Shown here in pieces: positions 2,212 to 58,399 of a stretch of 64,000 nucleotides of DNA. The notes below the pieces were generated by a model that was not told where the DNA came from, searched no databases, and saw nothing but the letters and a program-made list of their open reading frames with translations. Each line of letters begins with the position of its first letter. The stretch's first letter is position 1. Both the position numbers and the translations under genes were made by a program. Location: the NCBI RefSeq assembly GCF_006345805.1, contig NC_043004.1, positions 59,458,001-59,522,000 of the forward strand, read 5' to 3'. The DNA is from Octopus sinensis. Taxonomy: Eukaryota.

Positions 2212-5083
<2,872 letters not shown>

Positions 5084-11860: not shown

Positions 11861-12427
11861 GGCCACAAAGCAGAGGAACCATGGTGTAACCCACTATGGT
11901 GTGGTAAATTTCAGATCCTGGTCTAGATTGCTTATCCTCTGTGCCCCAGGATGGTTCAGCTCTCCATCCGTTAAAAGCCACCGTTTACGGAATGAGGTTA
12001 ACAACGTAGCTTTCGCGCCCGTGCAACCGTGAGTTTATTGTGTGTGGTGGGAGGCCACACACATATGCGAAGAGAGATAGAACAACATGACGAGTTAGGT
12101 TGGAGGTCGTCCTGAGGTGGTACCGACGCCTTCATGTAGCTAACATTTTAACGTTTTTTTTTTAGTTAACATTATGGCTTGAACTTGAGCACACCTTGTG
12201 TTTGCTGTTAAATTGTTGTGGCACTCTCAATAACAAAGCCGTTATTTGAAACGATTTCCTTCCTTTCTTTAATAATAAGATATGAATGGTTCCGTAGTAA
12301 AGACATACGTATGATACAGCATTTGTGAAGGTTTGACTACCATTAGTCGCAGTTGCTGTTTACGTTGTTATTATTGTCTTTGTGGAGGTGGTAGTGACTT
12401 TCATGCTTATGCGGTCAATGATTTTGT

Positions 12428-12635
12428 TCGCACGCCGGGCGAAATGCGTGGCCGTATTTCGTCTGCTGTTACGTTCTGAGTTCAAATTCCACCGAGGTCG
12501 ACTTTGCCTTTCATCCTTTCGGGGTCGATAAATTAAGTGCCAGTCATACACTGGGGTCGATATAATCGACTTAATCCGTTTGTCTGTCCTTGTTTGTCCT
12601 CTCTGTGTTTAGCCCCTTGTGGGTAGTAAAGAAAT
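12428..12635 (+). mobile_element. SINE family B
   Basis: Near-consensus core; tail GCCCCTTGTGGGTAGTAAAGAAATA. Confidence 0.9.
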
Positions 12636-12976
12636 ATATATTGTTCGCGTGGAGGACTAATAATAGCTTTCCTTTGTATTACAAGAATCTTTCAGGGTAG
12701 CTCCAAGCTGGTTTTGGTCAATTGTAATCAAGGACGTTCTGGCAGAAATAATAACGTCTCGTTCTTTCTATACATGCTGTATATAAGACTACTTATTTTA
12801 CCTATGTGGACTACATTGTGAAAGACCTTAGGATATTTAGCTGCTGATTCTTGCAATTTGAGTGGCTATCTAGAAGTCACTATGTTGCTTTAGCTGGCAA
12901 TGGTGATAGTAGTGACGGTGGTGGTGCTGTTGCTGGTGAGGTATGTGACGATAACGAAGTTAGTTGCAGTAGTGAT

Positions 12977-35842: not shown

Positions 35843-36660
35843 ATTAGGTTGTCAAGAAAGTTCTTACGGTTTTCATCCTTTAAATTCAGATGCACAATAT
35901 CTCGGCTCAAAAAAAACTTTATTTATCGAAATAAACACCATCAGAATCAATATACCTTTGCCAACGCGAAACAAGTTTATTTATGCAAGTAGCGTAAAAA
36001 TCCTGCGTTCTGGTGGCGATGAAGTCGTTGAAGGCGTGTTTGCCATCGTCTTGGTTTTTGAAGCATTTCTCACGCAGGAAGATGCTTAAAAAAGGGATAG
36101 TCGCTAGGCGAAAGGACTGGTGAGTATGATGGATGAGGCAGAGATACGTAGCCAGATTCGTTCATCCTCTGCAGGGTCAATTGTGCGACGTGCGGCCGAG
36201 CGTTGTCGTGAAGAAGAATTGGTCCTTTTCTATTGACCAATTGTGGCTGTTGTCGGAGTTTCTTATGCATTTCATCCATTTGCTGACAGTACTTCTCCGC
36301 CGTAATGGTTTCGACTGGATCAAAAAAGCTGTGATAGATGAGACCGGCCGCAGACCACCAAACAGTCACTATGACCCTCTTTTGATGCAACTTTGGCTTC
36401 GGGAAGTTCCGTTGAGCGTCGCCGATTGTCGTAAAGAATCATTACAAATCACAACGCGGTCGATAAACGGGTCGTTCTTGTTGCGTAAAAGAAGGGAAGA
36501 CGACACTTCAAAATGACGTTGTTTTTGTTTGTTGTTCAGTTCGTGCGGCACCCATTTCTCAAGTAGTTTTGTTTTTCCAATCTCTTTCAAGTGTTTGGAA
36601 ATTGTCGTATAATATTTACAGAATACAAACGACGAAGGCAGGTGAGGAAACAACAAGCAA
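35843..36660 (-). mobile_element. Mariner (DD34D) transposon remnant
   Basis: WVPHEL, HQKRVIVTVWWS, ILLHDNARPH, HPSYSPVLSPSDYPFFKHL; terminal TA-TTAGGTTG at ~35842. Confidence 0.93.
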
Positions 36661-36802
36661 GTGTGTTAGTTTAACGATCTGGAAGAATGGAAAAGTGTTT
36701 TACGTTTCGAGCATACGTTCTTCGACAGTAAGGAATAAGAGGCGAAAAATTGAGAGCTAACATGAAAAAAAAAAAACGGTAACAAACGGAGAGACGAAAA
36801 TA

Positions 36803-39312: not shown

Positions 39313-39398
39313 CCTATACAAATACTTGATACACCTACAGCATACTGAACCGAGTAATGTTTTGCCAAGAAAGCTGACAGTAAAACTAACCGGAACGA

Positions 39399-39468
<70 letters not shown>

Positions 39469-40418
39469 TAATAAGAAGAGAAGAAGAAGAAGAAGAAGAA
39501 GAAGAAGAAGAAAAAGAAAAAGAAGAAGAAGAAGAAGAAAAAGGAGAAGAGAGTAGCAGTAGCTACACCAGCAACAAGTATAATAACACCAACAGCAGAA
39601 ACAGCAACAACGAATATAATTGCGTGAATGATATCATTAACTAAAAGAAAGATAAGTAAAATGTTTAAATGTCAAATTTGCTAATTTACTTTTGGTATAA
39701 AAGTTTCTAGATTTGATTTTCACCAATGAGAAATCAGATTATTCTAAGAAATCCTCGCGGATATAAAATCTTCTTGAGAGAAAGAATAATACAACATAAA
39801 AAAAACGAAGAAAACAAAAGAAAAGAAAGAAGAAAGAAAGAAGGAAAGAAAGAAAGAAGGAAAGAAAGAAAGAAAAATATATTGTATTTTAATTACGAAG
39901 CGAAAACTACATTTTGAATGGAACGAAACAAACAACATTGGATGTAGTGAATTTGTTTGTGAAAAATATGTGCGTGTATTTATGCTCTCTGTCTTGACCG
40001 ACCACCTACTTTGTAGCAAAGTAGTGGAGGGAAGTATCTTGTTTTAACCATCCTTCGAAATTGAAGAAGAACATGCAGATTTATGCAGTCCCACATATGG
40101 TGATCATTTGTAGAATATATATATATATATATATATAGGGGGGGGGGTATGTAAAATTTCCCCTTATATTTCCACGGGAATTTTTATATTTTTTTTTGTA
40201 ACATATTTCTNNNNNNNNNNNNNNNNNNNNNNNNNNNNNNNNNNNNNNNNNNNNNNNNNNNNNNNNNNNNNNNNNNNNNNNNNNNNNNNNNNNNNNNNNN
40301 NNNNNNNNNNCCTATACAATACTTGATACACCTACAGCATACTGAACCGAGTAATGTTTGGCCAAGAAAGCTGACAGTAAAACTAACCGGAACGAAATAA
40401 TAATAATATATAATAATA

Positions 40419-40458
<40 letters not shown>

Positions 40459-41233
40459 TAATAATAAGAAGAAGAGAAGAAGAAGAAGAAGAAGAAGAGA
40501 AGAAGAAAAGAAAAAGAAGAAGAAGAAGAGAGAAAAGGAGAAGAGAGTAGCAGTAGCAGTAGCTCCCCAGCAACAAGTATTATAATAACACCAAAGCAGA
40601 AACAAGCAACAAACGAATATAATTGCGTGAATGATATCATAATAAAGAAAGATAAGTAAAATGTTTAAATGTCAAATTTGCTATTTACTTTTGGTAGTAA
40701 AAGTTTCTAGATTTGATATTTTCAACAATGAGAAATCAGATGATTCTAAGAAATCCTCGCGGATATAAAATCTTCTTGAGAGAAAGAATAATACAACATA
40801 AAAAAAACGAAGAAAACAAAAGAAAAGAAAAAAGAAAGAAAGAAGAATGGAAAGGACAAGAAGGAAAGAAAGAAAGAAGGAAAGAAAGAAAGAAAAAATA
40901 TTGTATTTTAATTACGAAGCGAAAACTGACATTTGAATGGAACGAAACAAACAACATTGGATGTAGTGAATTTGTTTGTGAAAAATATGTGCGTGTATTT
41001 ATGCTCTCTGTCTCTTGACCGACCACCTACTTTGTAGCAAAGTAGTGGAGGGAAGTATATCTGTTTTTAACCATCCTCGAAATTGAAGAAGAACATGCAG
41101 ATTTATGCAGTCCCACATATGGTGATCCATTGTAGAATATATATATATATAATATATAGGGGGGGGGGGGTATGTAAAATTTCCCCTTATATTTCCACGG
41201 GAATTTTATATTTTCTTTTTGTAACATATTTCT
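39313..41233. other. 100-N scaffold gap (40211-40310) flanked by a ~0.9-kb duplicated sequence
   Basis: 39313-40210 matches 40311-41233; the first copy ends and the second begins exactly at the gap; differences are mostly indels. Confidence 0.95.
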
Positions 41234-44430: not shown

Positions 44431-44939
44431 TATAACAGTTTTACGTAATGTTTTAATTTCATTTCATCAATGTTAATAATAGAATTTATTTTAGTGGTAG
44501 ACTTCAACTGTCAGCCGGTTGAACATCACCAAATTTTCTTTTAGCCCAGTCCATTCTGTTCTAAATATTAGAATTACGTCACGAGTTAAATAACTTATTA
44601 TAAGTAAGTAATGCATTGCATCGAGAGTGAAATTGCTGAATAAGTAATCACTAACGTTGAAAAAATATTTGATGAAAAGTGAGGTAAAAATTGCTGTCCT
44701 ACTAAACAATAAAATGCAACTATAAGTAATATTTGAGAAAGGTGATTAATGTTCAAATGAACAAACATTAGTAATTACAAGCGAACTATTTGCAATTACT
44801 GGACAAACCTTACATAAATGGCTGCATCCGTATTTAATGAATAAATGATCATTGAAAAAGAAAATCGGCCTTGGATATACGATTAAAAAGTTCGCTTCTT
44901 AGACATATGATTCGGTTTTGTCTGAGTAAGAAAATCTTT

Positions 44940-45075
44940 TGGCGTAGTGGGGCTACTAAACCCCAAATTCCGAGTTCGATTCCAAGCAGTGACCTGAACA
45001 ATAACAATAATAATGATAATGATAATAATGATAATAATAATAAATAAATTATTAATAATAATAATAATAATAACA

Positions 45076-45154
<79 letters not shown>

Positions 45155-45915
45155 TGCAGTACCAGGCAGTGGCTCTCATGGCTTCTGATCTTAACTGATT
45201 GGAAGTGCTATCATGTACATTATTTTGTCTTGGTATAAAAGATGGGCTACAGCAAATATTCTGCTCAGTACCACAGATTTGCTTGTCAGCTGTTTGACCA
45301 TAACCAGTTGAGCATTTCCCTTAGTGGCTGACGATATGTGCATCTCTGATCACGAGCAGAAGTAGTGGGGGAGCATCATAGCCATGTGTTGAGAGGGATT
45401 CTTTGGGGTTTGAATAATTCACCTCTGGAAACACGGGTGGTTTTTCAAACATCCTTAAACAACCCTATTCAGGGACCGTTTGAGCAGGATGGGCTACTCA
45501 ACCTGAAGAAAATTCTAACTGGGCTCCACCTGCAAGGTCATGTGCTGTTTATCTTGATATAAGATCACCATGTCGCGCACATATGGTTGTGATGCATGTG
45601 CCTGGTGTACCCTTATCAGACGGGTATTCATGATGGATATATTGGGCTTCGTATATTTTACCCCAGTGTCACTTTGATGGCATGAACTGCTCTCTCACTC
45701 AATAATAATAATAACAACAACAACAACAGCATCGAAAAATATCTTAGGAACGAGAAACCTGATTCGAAATTTCTCCAAGACAACTGAAGAAGGCTGGAGG
45801 GTATATCAGTCGAAATTTTGTGTTAACAACAAACAAGATGAGGACAGATACCAAATATAAATAATGTAAACAATGTAAATAATGTACATAATTCCTCATC
45901 TCTTAAATATAGAAC
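44940..45915 (+). mobile_element. Composite SINE: tRNA-like head + (AAT)n + hammerhead-bearing tail; hosts a nested insertion at 45154-45700
   Basis: Box A TGGCGTAGTGG, box B GAGTTCGATTCC; HHR motif at 45779-45824; TSD TAAGAAAATCTTT at 44927-44939 and 45916-45928. Confidence 0.85.
45154..45700 (+). mobile_element. ~550-bp non-coding element inserted in (AAT)n
   Basis: High similarity to 47144-47698 (-) and 57848-58399 (+); (AAT)n on both sides. Confidence 0.92.
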
Positions 45916-46059
45916 TAAGAAAATCTTTAATGAACTGTCTTCAATCGTAGCTACATCTTGACCAATGACTATAAGTGGGATTATGTAGAAGGTCATTGTA
46001 CAAAAGTAAGTTTCAGAGATATATGTGTCTGTTGGCTGTGCGTATCACTGTGCATGCAT

Positions 46060-47143: not shown

Positions 47144-47697
47144 GAGTGAGAGAGCCGTGCATGCCATCAAAGTGACACTGGGGTAAAATACACGAAGCCC
47201 AATATACCCATCATGACTACCCGTCTGATAAGGGTACACTAGGCACATGCATCACAACCATATGTGCGCGACATGGTGATCTCATATCAAGATAAACAGC
47301 ACATGACCTTGCAGGTGGGGCCCAGTTAGAATTTTCTTCAGGTTCAGTAGCCCATCCCGCTCATAAGGTCCCTGAATAAGGATTGTTTAAGGATGTTGAA
47401 AGAACCACCCATGTTTCCAGAGGTGAACTATTCAAGCCCCAAAGAATCCCTCTCAACACATGGCTATGATGCTCCCCCACTACTTCTGCTTGTGATCAGA
47501 GATGCACGTATTATCAGCCACTAAGGGACATGCTCAACTGGTTAAGGTCAAACAACTGACAAGCAAATCTGTGGTATTGAGCAGAATATTTGCTGTAGCC
47601 CATCTTTTATACCAAGACAAAACAATGCACATGATAACACTTCCAATCAGTTAAGATCAGAAACTATGAAAGCCACTGCCTGGTACTGCATCAGGGC

Positions 47698-47698
<1 letters not shown>
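47144..47698 (-). mobile_element. ~550-bp (AAT)n-targeted element, full length
   Basis: 5' end TGCCCTGATGCAGTACCAGG, 3' end CTCTCTCACTC, (TTA)n on both sides. Confidence 0.92.
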
Positions 47699-47762
<64 letters not shown>

Positions 47763-50484: not shown

Positions 50485-50863
50485 ACTCTCTCTCTCTCTC
50501 TATCTCTATCTCTTAGTCTGCTTATTTACCACCTATCTATTTTTCTGCCAATATATATCTTGTCTTTATCTACCTGCCAATCCACAACTTCAATTGAAGA
50601 AACAATATATTCAACTAAAGATATGTTTATATATGTTCTAATATTTTTAATCGGTATGAGTTAAAAAGTCATTCAACAGCCAAGAGTTTCTGGTATAGCA
50701 TTTATCATACACGATACTGCTCGCGCTTGAATTGCTTTGTAACTTCTGCCGTGTAGAATTAATAAAATATCTTTCTATCTGAGCCATAATAAATAAAAGC
50801 ATTAACAGTATATTATGATCCTGTCACAGTATGAGAATGACTTGCACGCAAAGAAAAGTATTC

Positions 50864-51159
50864 CAGGTTTATATTTAAGAGATGAGGAATTTACATTATT
50901 TACATTTGACAGATATTTGTCCTCATATTTTTGTTGTTAACACAACGTTTCGGCTAATATACCCTCCAGCCTTCACCAGGTGTCTTGGGAAAATTTCAAA
51001 CCTGGGTTCTCATTCCTAAGGTATTTTTCGATGTTGATGTTGTTGTTGTTGGTGTTTCTATAGCTTTTTTAGAGAAATCTTGTCATCTACTGGTACTACT
51101 ACATCAATTAGAAAGCATTCTTCTTCTTCTTCGTCTTCTTCTTCTTATTATTATTATTA

Positions 51160-51238
<79 letters not shown>

Positions 51239-51338
51239 CAGGTCACTGCTTGTAATCGAACCGGAATCTTGGGGTTAGTAGCCCGCGCTCTTAACCACTA
51301 CGCCATATGCCCGTGACCTGAATAATAATAATAACAAC

Positions 51339-51410
<72 letters not shown>

Positions 51411-51557
51411 AGCAACAACATCGAAAAATACCTTAGGAATGAGAACCAAGGTTCGAAATTTCCCCACGACACCTGATGAATGCTGGGGGCTATGTCAGCC
51501 GAAAGGTTGTGTTAACACCAAAAAAGATGAGGACAACTCATCAAATATAAATAATGT
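50864..51557. mobile_element. Head-to-head pair of the tRNA-head/HHR-tail SINE: full copy on - (50864-51312) plus inverted partial copy on + (51313-51557)
   Basis: tRNA-like head at 51238-51312 (-); HHR motifs at 50939-50984 (-) and 51468-51513 (+); TSD AAGAAAAGTATTC at 50851-50863 and 51558-51570. Confidence 0.85.
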
Positions 51558-51565
51558 AAGAAAAG

Positions 51566-52310
51566 TATTCTTTACTACCCTAAGCACAAGGTCCGAAATT
51601 TGGGGTGGGTGAGCAGGGGGCCAGTCGATTAGATCGAAACCAGTACACAACTAGTAGCTAATTTATCGACTCCGAAGGGATGAAAGCAAAGTCGACCTCA
51701 GCGGAATTTGAACTCAGAACGTAAAGACAGACGAACTACCTATTTATTTACTATCCACAAGGATCTAAACACAGAGAGGACAAACAAGGACAGACAAACG
51801 GATTTAGTCGATTATATCGACCCCACTGCGTAACTGGTACTTATTTAATCGACCCCGAAAGGATGAAAGGCAAAGTCGACCTCAGTGGAATTTGAACTCA
51901 GAACGTAGCGGCAGACGAATTACCGATAAGCATTTCACCAGGCGTGCTAACGTTTCGTATTTCTTTTTTGCACACAAGGGGCTAACCATAAAGGGGACAA
52001 ACAAGGAGAGACAAACGGATTAAGTAGATTATATCGACCCCAGCGTGGAACTGGTACATAATTTATCGACCCCGAAAAGATGAAAGGCAAAGTCGACCTC
52101 GGCGTAATTTGAACTCAGAACGTAGCGGCAGACGAAATACCTATTTCTTTACTACCCATAAGGGGCTAAACACAGAGGGGACAAACAAGGACAGACAAAC
52201 GGATTAAGTCGATTATATCGACCCAAGTGCGACTCAGAACGTAGTGGCAGACGATATACCGCTAAGCACTTCGTTCGGCGTGCTAACGTTTCAGGCAGCT
52301 CCCCACCTTT
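51566..52310 (-). mobile_element. Array of four nested/tandem SINE family B copies
   Basis: ACTCAGAACGTA..CAGACGA occurs four times (~51712, 51896, 52113, 52232); units ~51566-51740, 51741-51956, 51957-52141, 52142-52310. Confidence 0.9.
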
Positions 52311-57794: not shown

Positions 57795-57847
<53 letters not shown>

Positions 57848-57848
<1 letters not shown>

Positions 57849-58399
57849 CCTGAAGCAGTACCAGGCAGTGGCTCTCATGACTTCTGATCTGAACTGATTG
57901 GAAGTGTTATCATGTACATTGTTTTGCCTTGGTATAAAAGATGGGCTACAGTAAATATTCTGCTCAATACCAGAGACTTGCTTGTGAGTTGTTTGGCCTT
58001 AATCAGTTGAGTATGTCCCTTAGTGGCTGACGATATGTGCATCTCTGATCACGAGCAGAAGTAGTGGGGGAGCATCATAGCCATGTGTTGAGAAGGATTC
58101 TTTGGGGTTTGAATAAATCACCTCTGGGAACATGGGTGTTTTGTTCAACATCCTTAACCAACCCTTATCCAGGGACCTTTTGAGCAGGATGGGCTACTTG
58201 ACCAGAAGAAAATTCTAACTGGGCCCCACCTGCAAGGTCATGTTTTGTTTATCTTGATATGAGATCACCATGTCGCGCACACATGGTTGTAATGCATGTG
58301 CCTGGTGTACCTTTATCAGACGGGTAGTCATGATGGGTATACTGGGCTTCGTATATATACCCCAGTGTCACTTTGATGGCATGCACTGCCTTTTCACTC
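57848..58399 (+). mobile_element. ~550-bp (AAT)n-targeted element, full length
   Basis: Collinear with 45154-45700; (AAT)n flanks. Confidence 0.92.

Follow-up and report, generated by a model that had tools for sequence, protein, structure and literature searches.

A head-to-head inverted pair of a tRNA-headed repeat in Octopus sinensis, likely inserted by Penelope-like enzymes

Results and Discussion

Two arms of one non-coding repeat are joined head to head, within a single exact 13-bp duplication, at nt 50851–51570 of the 64 kb stretch of Octopus sinensis DNA analysed here (the window). The pair is probably one old insertion, the product of a single event in which a Penelope-like element (PLE) supplied its reverse transcriptase and GIY-YIG endonuclease in trans, because the locus fits the published PLE scheme point by point, save for a longer target site duplication (TSD) and the lack of a junction palindrome. 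The tRNA-headed repeat itself is likely a SINE-like passenger of PLE enzymes, not of LINEs.

Structure of the inverted pair

The 13-mer AAGAAAAGTATTC is found at nt 50851–50863 and again at 51558–51570 (+ strand), and nowhere else on either strand of the window. A previous sequence-only reading had proposed one TSD around the whole pair, with a left arm at 50864–51312 (– strand) joined to a right arm that begins with GTGACCTG at 51313 (+ strand), and the present analysis agrees on each of these points. The left arm is 449 nt long and the right arm, which ends at 51557, is 245 nt. When non-simple 41-nt stretches lying 300–900 nt apart were paired at random 20,000 times, five pairs shared at least 13 letters; here the repeat also abuts both arm ends. 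No separate TSD was found for either half, as neither arm alone is flanked by a duplication at the inner junction. At the start of the right-hand repeat, two letters coincide with those that come next in the element and may belong to it, so the true TSD is 11–13 bp.

Read in its own sense, the left arm consists of a tRNA-like head of 74 nt with box A and box B motifs (51239–51312), an (AAT)n linker (51147–51238), a foreign piece of about 80 nt (51054–51136), a pLTR-like body of ~143 nt (50893–51035) that includes a minimal type I hammerhead motif (50939–50984), and a 29-nt 3' extension or 'tail' (50864–50892), all on the – strand. The right arm (+ strand) starts with the last 8 nt of the head (51313–51320), followed by an (AAT)n/(AAC)n linker (51321–51419) and the body (51420–51557; hammerhead motif 51468–51513), which stops where the tail would be expected to start. 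That the right arm lacks these last 29 nt, so that the extension is confined to the left arm, was missed in the earlier description; a third copy of the family (see below) does have the tail.

The left arm had been called a full copy on the – strand, and its coordinates are correct, but the foreign piece within it is an unrelated fragment of a LINE endonuclease region, inserted between (AAG)n and (AAC)n and missing from both the right arm and the third copy. It lies in the same sense as the left arm and is 79% like nt 2529–2605 (over 77 nt), within a broken LINE at ~2400–4950. By their motifs, this LINE and the fragment look to be of the R4/Dong type. The fragment may have been captured before or after the insertion.

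The head-to-head junction (51312/51313) has no microhomology, and 8-nt inverted arms flank a 66-nt spacer at the inner junction, with no palindrome or overlap. Poly(A) is absent at all three 3' ends (both arms and the third copy), which are unique sequence. Near the 3' end, the tail is preceded by an imperfect 9-nt repeat, which resembles a LINE-type tandem 3' end. A transcript across the pair is predicted to fold as a long hairpin, at –298 kcal/mol compared to –106 to –115 kcal/mol for 10 controls in which one arm was shuffled; the long hairpin suggested earlier is thus upheld as a prediction only. Two incomplete copies of a further abundant SINE-like repeat, which is related to nt 12426–12636, lie directly to the right of the TSD (51590–51955).

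The tRNA-like head and the hammerhead motif

The 5' end of the repeat has a box A motif at head positions 8–18 and a box B motif at 51–61, which is the spacing of a tRNA. ARAGORN found no tRNA with its threshold lowered as far as 80%, and at 70% gave only an ill-formed one. Rfam gave no matches at the gathering score across the whole window; at E ≤ 10, the region 50800–52000 gave eight chance matches, none of which was a tRNA or a hammerhead. The label 'tRNA-like' is therefore applied on the box motifs alone, since ARAGORN finds no proper tRNA and Rfam no tRNA. Like tRNA-derived SINEs, the repeat has the two boxes spaced as in a tRNA and is dispersed, of high copy number and flanked by TSDs; a LINE-derived 3' end or a poly(A) or simple-repeat tail is absent, the 3' ends being unique sequence. 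The start of the right arm (51313–51319) falls exactly on the strand for which pairing with the first six bases of the head is predicted, as if reverse transcription had halted on entering a tRNA-like fold, and this coincidence may be due to chance.

Each body contains a 5-bp helix I, a CUGANGA-type core, one unpaired base, a 6-bp helix II, GAAA, a two-base helix III and UU. The unpaired base follows A9, pair 10.1–11.1 is G–C, and 15.2–16.2 is palindromic. By these features, this is a PLE-type minimal type I hammerhead motif in a terminal repeat, as judged from the sequence, and they match those of the minimal hammerheads of metazoan PLEs (PMC4209133). Every copy in the window (3/3) has a core or stem defect. 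In the left arm, helices I and II are fully paired and the core, CTGGTGA, carries a private change, at which (place 50976) the majority of the family has the canonical letter. The right-arm motif has an intact core, with pairs 10.1–11.1 and 15.2–16.2 broken, and that of the third copy has two broken pairs.

A third copy in the window

The third copy, including its TSDs, is found at 44927–45928 (+ strand). An exact 13-bp TSD, TAAGAAAATCTTT (44927–44939 and 45916–45928), encloses the element (44940–45915). Its head (44940–44996) is missing the 5' 7 nt and has an 11-nt deletion, and is followed by an (AAT)n run that is split by an unrelated repeat of ~545 nt (45154–45700), then by the body (45731–45885), with a decayed hammerhead (45779–45824), and a 30-nt tail (45886–45915). 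The window holds, then, the inverted pair and one monomer rather than tandem units, and no head-to-tail partial tandems were found among the family copies within it.

The ~545-nt repeat occurs three times (45154–45700, 47154–47700 and 57844–58390). Its copies are 92–94% alike and all three have (AAT)n on both sides, a pattern that marks it as an AAT-targeting element on sequence grounds.

The family in public sequencing runs

Four public runs (X2, X6, X8 and X12, of 24 listed) were compared over nt 50520–51120. The contigs placed on this region numbered 18,449, 21,073, 8,988 and 14,258 in the four runs, with contigs of the foreign piece counted in. In every run the summed depth over the body exceeded the depth of the flank about 10^5-fold (4.8 million versus 47 in X2), which is a ratio of depths and not a copy number. 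This ratio agrees with the presence of three bodies in 64 kb, and the family would comprise roughly 10^5 copies.

Upstream of the body edge at 51035, (AAT)n was found in 164, 145, 75 and 133 contigs of the four runs. At the other end, loose 3' ends were seen at 50889, 50892 and 50870, with at least 420, 143 and 92 cases in X2 and at least 311, 135 and 79 in X6; those at 50889 and 50892 were also among the ends listed for X8 and X12. The places of these ends coincide with an indel and mismatches of the left arm itself, and are partly an effect of alignment, so that only the consensus letters at the loose ends carry weight. The consensus lacks tail letters at 50889, has part of the tail at 50892, and has the last tail letters at 50870. 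Judged by these letters, the family has two classes of 3' end, tail-bearing and tail-less.

Joints between family copies were also found. Two opposite-strand joints are present among the 15 listed of 52, and two among the 12 listed of 48 joints with letters between go back through AAT, i.e. they are head-to-tail partial tandems. Since contigs break at the microsatellite, these counts show presence and not frequency. A 17-letter motif from the body was matched by metagenome sequences at 94 loci, but the best alignment was 33 nt and all were taken as chance.

The same breakage means that contigs cannot link head to body, and their linkage was seen at two loci only. It could be proposed that the head with its (AAT)n, as a small SINE, and the hammerhead body, as a PLE end-piece, are unrelated and meet because both favour AAT runs. 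PLEs do favour AT-rich microsatellites (PMC3846280, PMC8557442), and other elements sit in these AAT runs. This proposal is improbable, given that all three bodies in the window have a head or head remnant and both heads have a body. At two loci (the inverted pair and the third copy) head and body lie inside one TSD, and the third-copy head abuts its TSD directly, with no AAT outside it, unlike the ~545-nt repeat with AAT on either side. In each of the four runs, the body also shows a single sharp 5' edge.

Divergence of the arms and the flanking sequence

Over the body, 147 sites can be aligned between the two arms, of which 128 match and 19 do not (87% identity, 13% divergence). Across 118 columns, private changes number 4 in the left arm, 7 in the right arm and 11 in the third copy, and two columns differ in all copies. 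At four cleanly readable changes of the left arm, the right arm has the letter of the family majority; as far as can be determined, the arms appear to share no derived change. The distance between them is close to what results from adding the separate decay of each arm from the family majority. At a decay of 5–9% per copy, the probability of an unchanged TSD is 0.09–0.26.

This divergence, with its unequal private changes, might be taken to mean that the arms arrived in two events, one arm making the TSD and the other either joining at its 5' edge afterwards, with no TSD, or arising by inverted duplication at the DNA level. The LINE fragment is missing from the right arm, and PLEs tend to insert beside existing copies (PMC6765202), both of which would suit such a history. 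It is nonetheless a poor candidate. Neither arm has a TSD of its own, the divergence is accounted for by separate decay of the two arms, and nothing would make a duplication of DNA stop at the edge of the tail and at the TSD. For PLEs, moreover, this geometry is standard (PMC3846280).

In runs X2, X6 and X8 the left flank runs on into the element, with 0, 5 and 6 differences, respectively, in about 360–370 nt, and reaches 16, 19 and 28 letters into it, which is below the 31-letter bar. The insertion thus seems, on these flanks, to be common to the three organisms. The flank in X12 has 20 differences in ~215 nt (~9%) and departs from the window at 50776, 75 nt before the site, a departure that is best read as an independent insertion or deletion in the lineage concerned. 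No empty site was seen in the four runs over nt 50520–51120, where the X12 flank departs before the site.

An assembly artefact, such as a fold-back read or a mis-join, is very improbable as the source of the pair. The window does include a gap flanked by duplicated sequence (39323–39700 and 40312–40780), but the arms of an artefactual fold-back are identical and lack a TSD, while these arms are 13% apart; the entry of the left flank into the element in three runs, short as it is, also tells against an artefact. The near-identical sequences lie on either side of 100 Ns and are probably an assembly overlap of two haplotypes.

Probable insertion by Penelope-like enzymes

In the published scheme of PLE insertion, an inverted, 5'-truncated copy is found at the 5' end, and a tail of 30–40 bp is often present at one end only (PMC8557442). 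Pen2a_Av of Adineta vaga has inverted pLTRs, a 9-bp TSD and a 31-bp tail on one pLTR, and TSDs of A. vaga PLEs are 8–10 bp long (PMC3846280). According to the same source, a palindrome is common at inverted junctions, and carriage of cargo in trans is possible for PLE pLTRs. The octopus locus shares with this scheme the inverted 3' ends within one TSD, the one-sided tail (29 nt, or 30 nt in the third copy) and the hammerhead in the terminal repeat. Counting against a PLE origin are the missing palindrome or overlap at the inverted junction, a TSD that at 11–13 bp exceeds the 8–10 bp of A. vaga, the 66-nt spacer, the LINE-like imperfect 9-nt repeat, and arms that differ at 19 of 147 sites though the TSD is unchanged. 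Mobilisation by a PLE, as had been suggested from the pair alone, gains from the one-sided tail, the minimal hammerhead, the two classes of 3' end and the tandem joints, and is still a conclusion that we infer.

No ORF with a telomerase-like reverse transcriptase and GIY-YIG domain was detected with Pfam profiles, either in the element or in the 141 window frames searched (5 plus 136 of the 356 frames of at least 62 aa, low-complexity frames being dropped). Matches among these frames were to RVT_1 (twice), zf-RVT, Transposase_1 and DUF7769, plus four weak ones below the cut-off. RVT_1 and zf-RVT matches belong to the broken LINE at ~2400–4950 (– strand), which lies beside an (ATT)n run, and Transposase_1 to a mariner-type transposase remnant at 35922–36760 (– strand). 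The element is not an autonomous PLE, nor is it a canonical LINE-tailed SINE or, at this locus, a tandem retrozyme.

LINE remnants are at hand in the window, and a LINE (of L2/CR1, RTE or Dong/R4 type) could have moved the repeat as an ordinary SINE; the pair would then come either from a tandem transcript that underwent twin priming or from two RNAs used at a single cut. Twin priming leaves inverted 5' segments in one TSD in 18–22% of L1 insertions, with a median TSD of 13 bp (PMC12016303), two L1 cDNAs bridged at their 5' ends are on record (bioRxiv 10.1101/2024.08.27.596794), and the imperfect 9-nt repeat near the 3' end would also suit a LINE. However, the parts of twin-primed L1 copies overlap by a median of 12 bp and inversions of Alu are as rare as 1 in 5936 (PMC12016303), while here the whole body of ~140 nt is doubled. 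The same 3' body at both outer ends tells against twin priming and would need a tandem template. Poly(A) is lacking, movement by a LINE leaves the PLE-type hammerhead and the one-sided 29-nt tail unexplained, and the body resembles no LINE remnant, nor anything else in the window beyond copies of its own family. This origin is regarded as unlikely.

If a PLE made the insertion in a single event, RNA polymerase III would transcribe the unit from its tRNA-like head, and the endonuclease would nick both strands of AT-rich DNA, 11–13 nt apart. One nick would prime cDNA synthesis that starts at the tail end and runs as far as the first base of the head, giving the left arm. The other would prime ~29 nt further in, aided by two nucleotides that match the target, and synthesis would stop 8 nt into the head, giving the right arm. 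The far ends of the two cDNAs would then be joined and the gaps filled in. Two RNA units would be required, supplied by a tandem transcript or by two molecules. Self-priming by fold-back is a less favoured variant; simple fold-back priming from the cDNA end of the left arm was rejected, as the predicted pairing of the 5' end of the head with GTGACCT would drop letters that the junction keeps. After insertion each arm would have decayed on its own, and today the locus is probably inert. The fuller proposition, that this is a true PLE SINE in which a Pol III tRNA-derived head and (AAT)n are joined to a PLE pLTR with hammerhead and tail, present in ~10^5 copies in octopus-like genomes and forming inverted pairs from two RNA templates primed at both nicks, has slightly better than even chances of being correct.

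Target sites

The motif AAGAAAA, noted earlier, is indeed present in both 13-bp TSDs of the family in the window, but with two sites and a comparison made post hoc; a 7-mer is shared by chance in 0.8% of random, and 3.2% of AT-rich, pairs of 13-mers. In one insertion the motif comes after the end with the tail, in the other after the end without it. When hundreds of 3' flanks at loose ends are combined, their consensus is no more than AT-rich (agreement 0.44–0.53), although ragged ends could blur a real motif. The A-rich target preference that had been drawn from AAGAAAA is not supported by these data.

Each target site forms a weak inverted repeat (n = 2): AAGAA-5 nt-TTCTT at 51558–51572 and AAGA-3 nt-TCTT at 45917–45927. 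Such repeats would suit the nicking of both strands at like sequences.

Relationship to known elements

The closest published insertions are those of endonuclease-bearing PLEs, such as Pen2a_Av and Pen3a-NRPS of A. vaga (PMC3846280, PMC8557442). They are alike in having inverted 3' ends in one TSD, a one-sided tail of ~30 nt, partial tandems within the family and AT-rich sites. The octopus repeat differs in that a head with tRNA boxes and (AAT)n take the place of the ORF, the TSD is 11–13 rather than 8–10 bp, and the junction has a 66-nt spacer without a palindrome. The hammerheads in pLTRs of metazoan PLEs (PMC4209133) likewise have a short helix I, a 6-bp helix II, a bulge after A9 and a helix III reduced to a palindromic pair, whereas the octopus motif is attached to a tRNA-box head and is defective in all three window copies. 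Minimal hammerheads of Schistosoma mansoni are found on opposite strands 100–700 bp apart (PMC4209133).

The Sm-alpha and Sj-alpha repeats of Schistosoma (PMC6765202, PMC8490949) are also non-coding, and in them a type I hammerhead comes after a promoter of Pol III type. Sm-alpha, compared here by description only, is tandem-repeated and has an active ribozyme, and the excerpts of these sources name no PLE partner, tail or inverted insertion for it. Animal non-LTR retrozymes (PMC7229834; bioRxiv 10.64898/2026.07.22.740005) resemble the octopus repeat as short non-coding hammerhead units that occur as dispersed monomers, and the same two sources argue that PLEs gave rise to them as non-autonomous derivatives. 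Their definition includes tandem arrays and circular RNAs, and no tRNA head is described for them in the portions available, while the octopus locus is an inverted pair; tandem units with an intact type I hammerhead are not seen in the window, where there are an inverted pair and a monomer with decayed motifs. The inversions that L1 makes by twin priming (PMC12016303) similarly place two opposed cDNAs in one TSD of ~13 bp, but these are adjacent parts of one RNA with one poly(A) end, unlike the octopus pair, which has the same 3' body at both ends and no poly(A).

In the O. vulgaris assembly, PLEs make up 6.83% of the sequence (PMC13282606). The body motif is missing from the single supplement file of that paper, and the excerpted text of PMC10886601, PMC4758252, PMC8967140 and bioRxiv 10.1101/2024.08.27.596794 describes no such element. 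No description of a tRNA-headed, pLTR-tailed SINE of cephalopods was found in the literature, with Repbase, Dfam, SINEBase and subscription journals outside the search. Repeat databases may already carry the family under a SINE or Penelope label.

Implications

By itself the pair is unsurprising, because it is the ordinary footprint of PLE integration, and its geometry is already known. The novelty may lie in what is carried, namely a head with tRNA boxes and a pLTR-like end, fused and moving together at two loci. The pair is of value as a diagnostic, pointing to PLE enzymes and not those of LINEs as the agents that move a tRNA-headed repeat present in very many copies. Inverted pairs of this kind would, if transcribed, be expected to give long double-stranded RNA. 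The origin of the inverted and tandem ends of PLEs, and of their tail, is stated to be unsolved (PMC8557442). Should the present reading be true, tens of thousands of short junctions would be available from which to read the mechanism of PLE integration, and a family so short and so large would allow template number, nick spacing and tail asymmetry to be counted. A PLE SINE would then extend to PLEs the partnership known between SINEs and LINEs.
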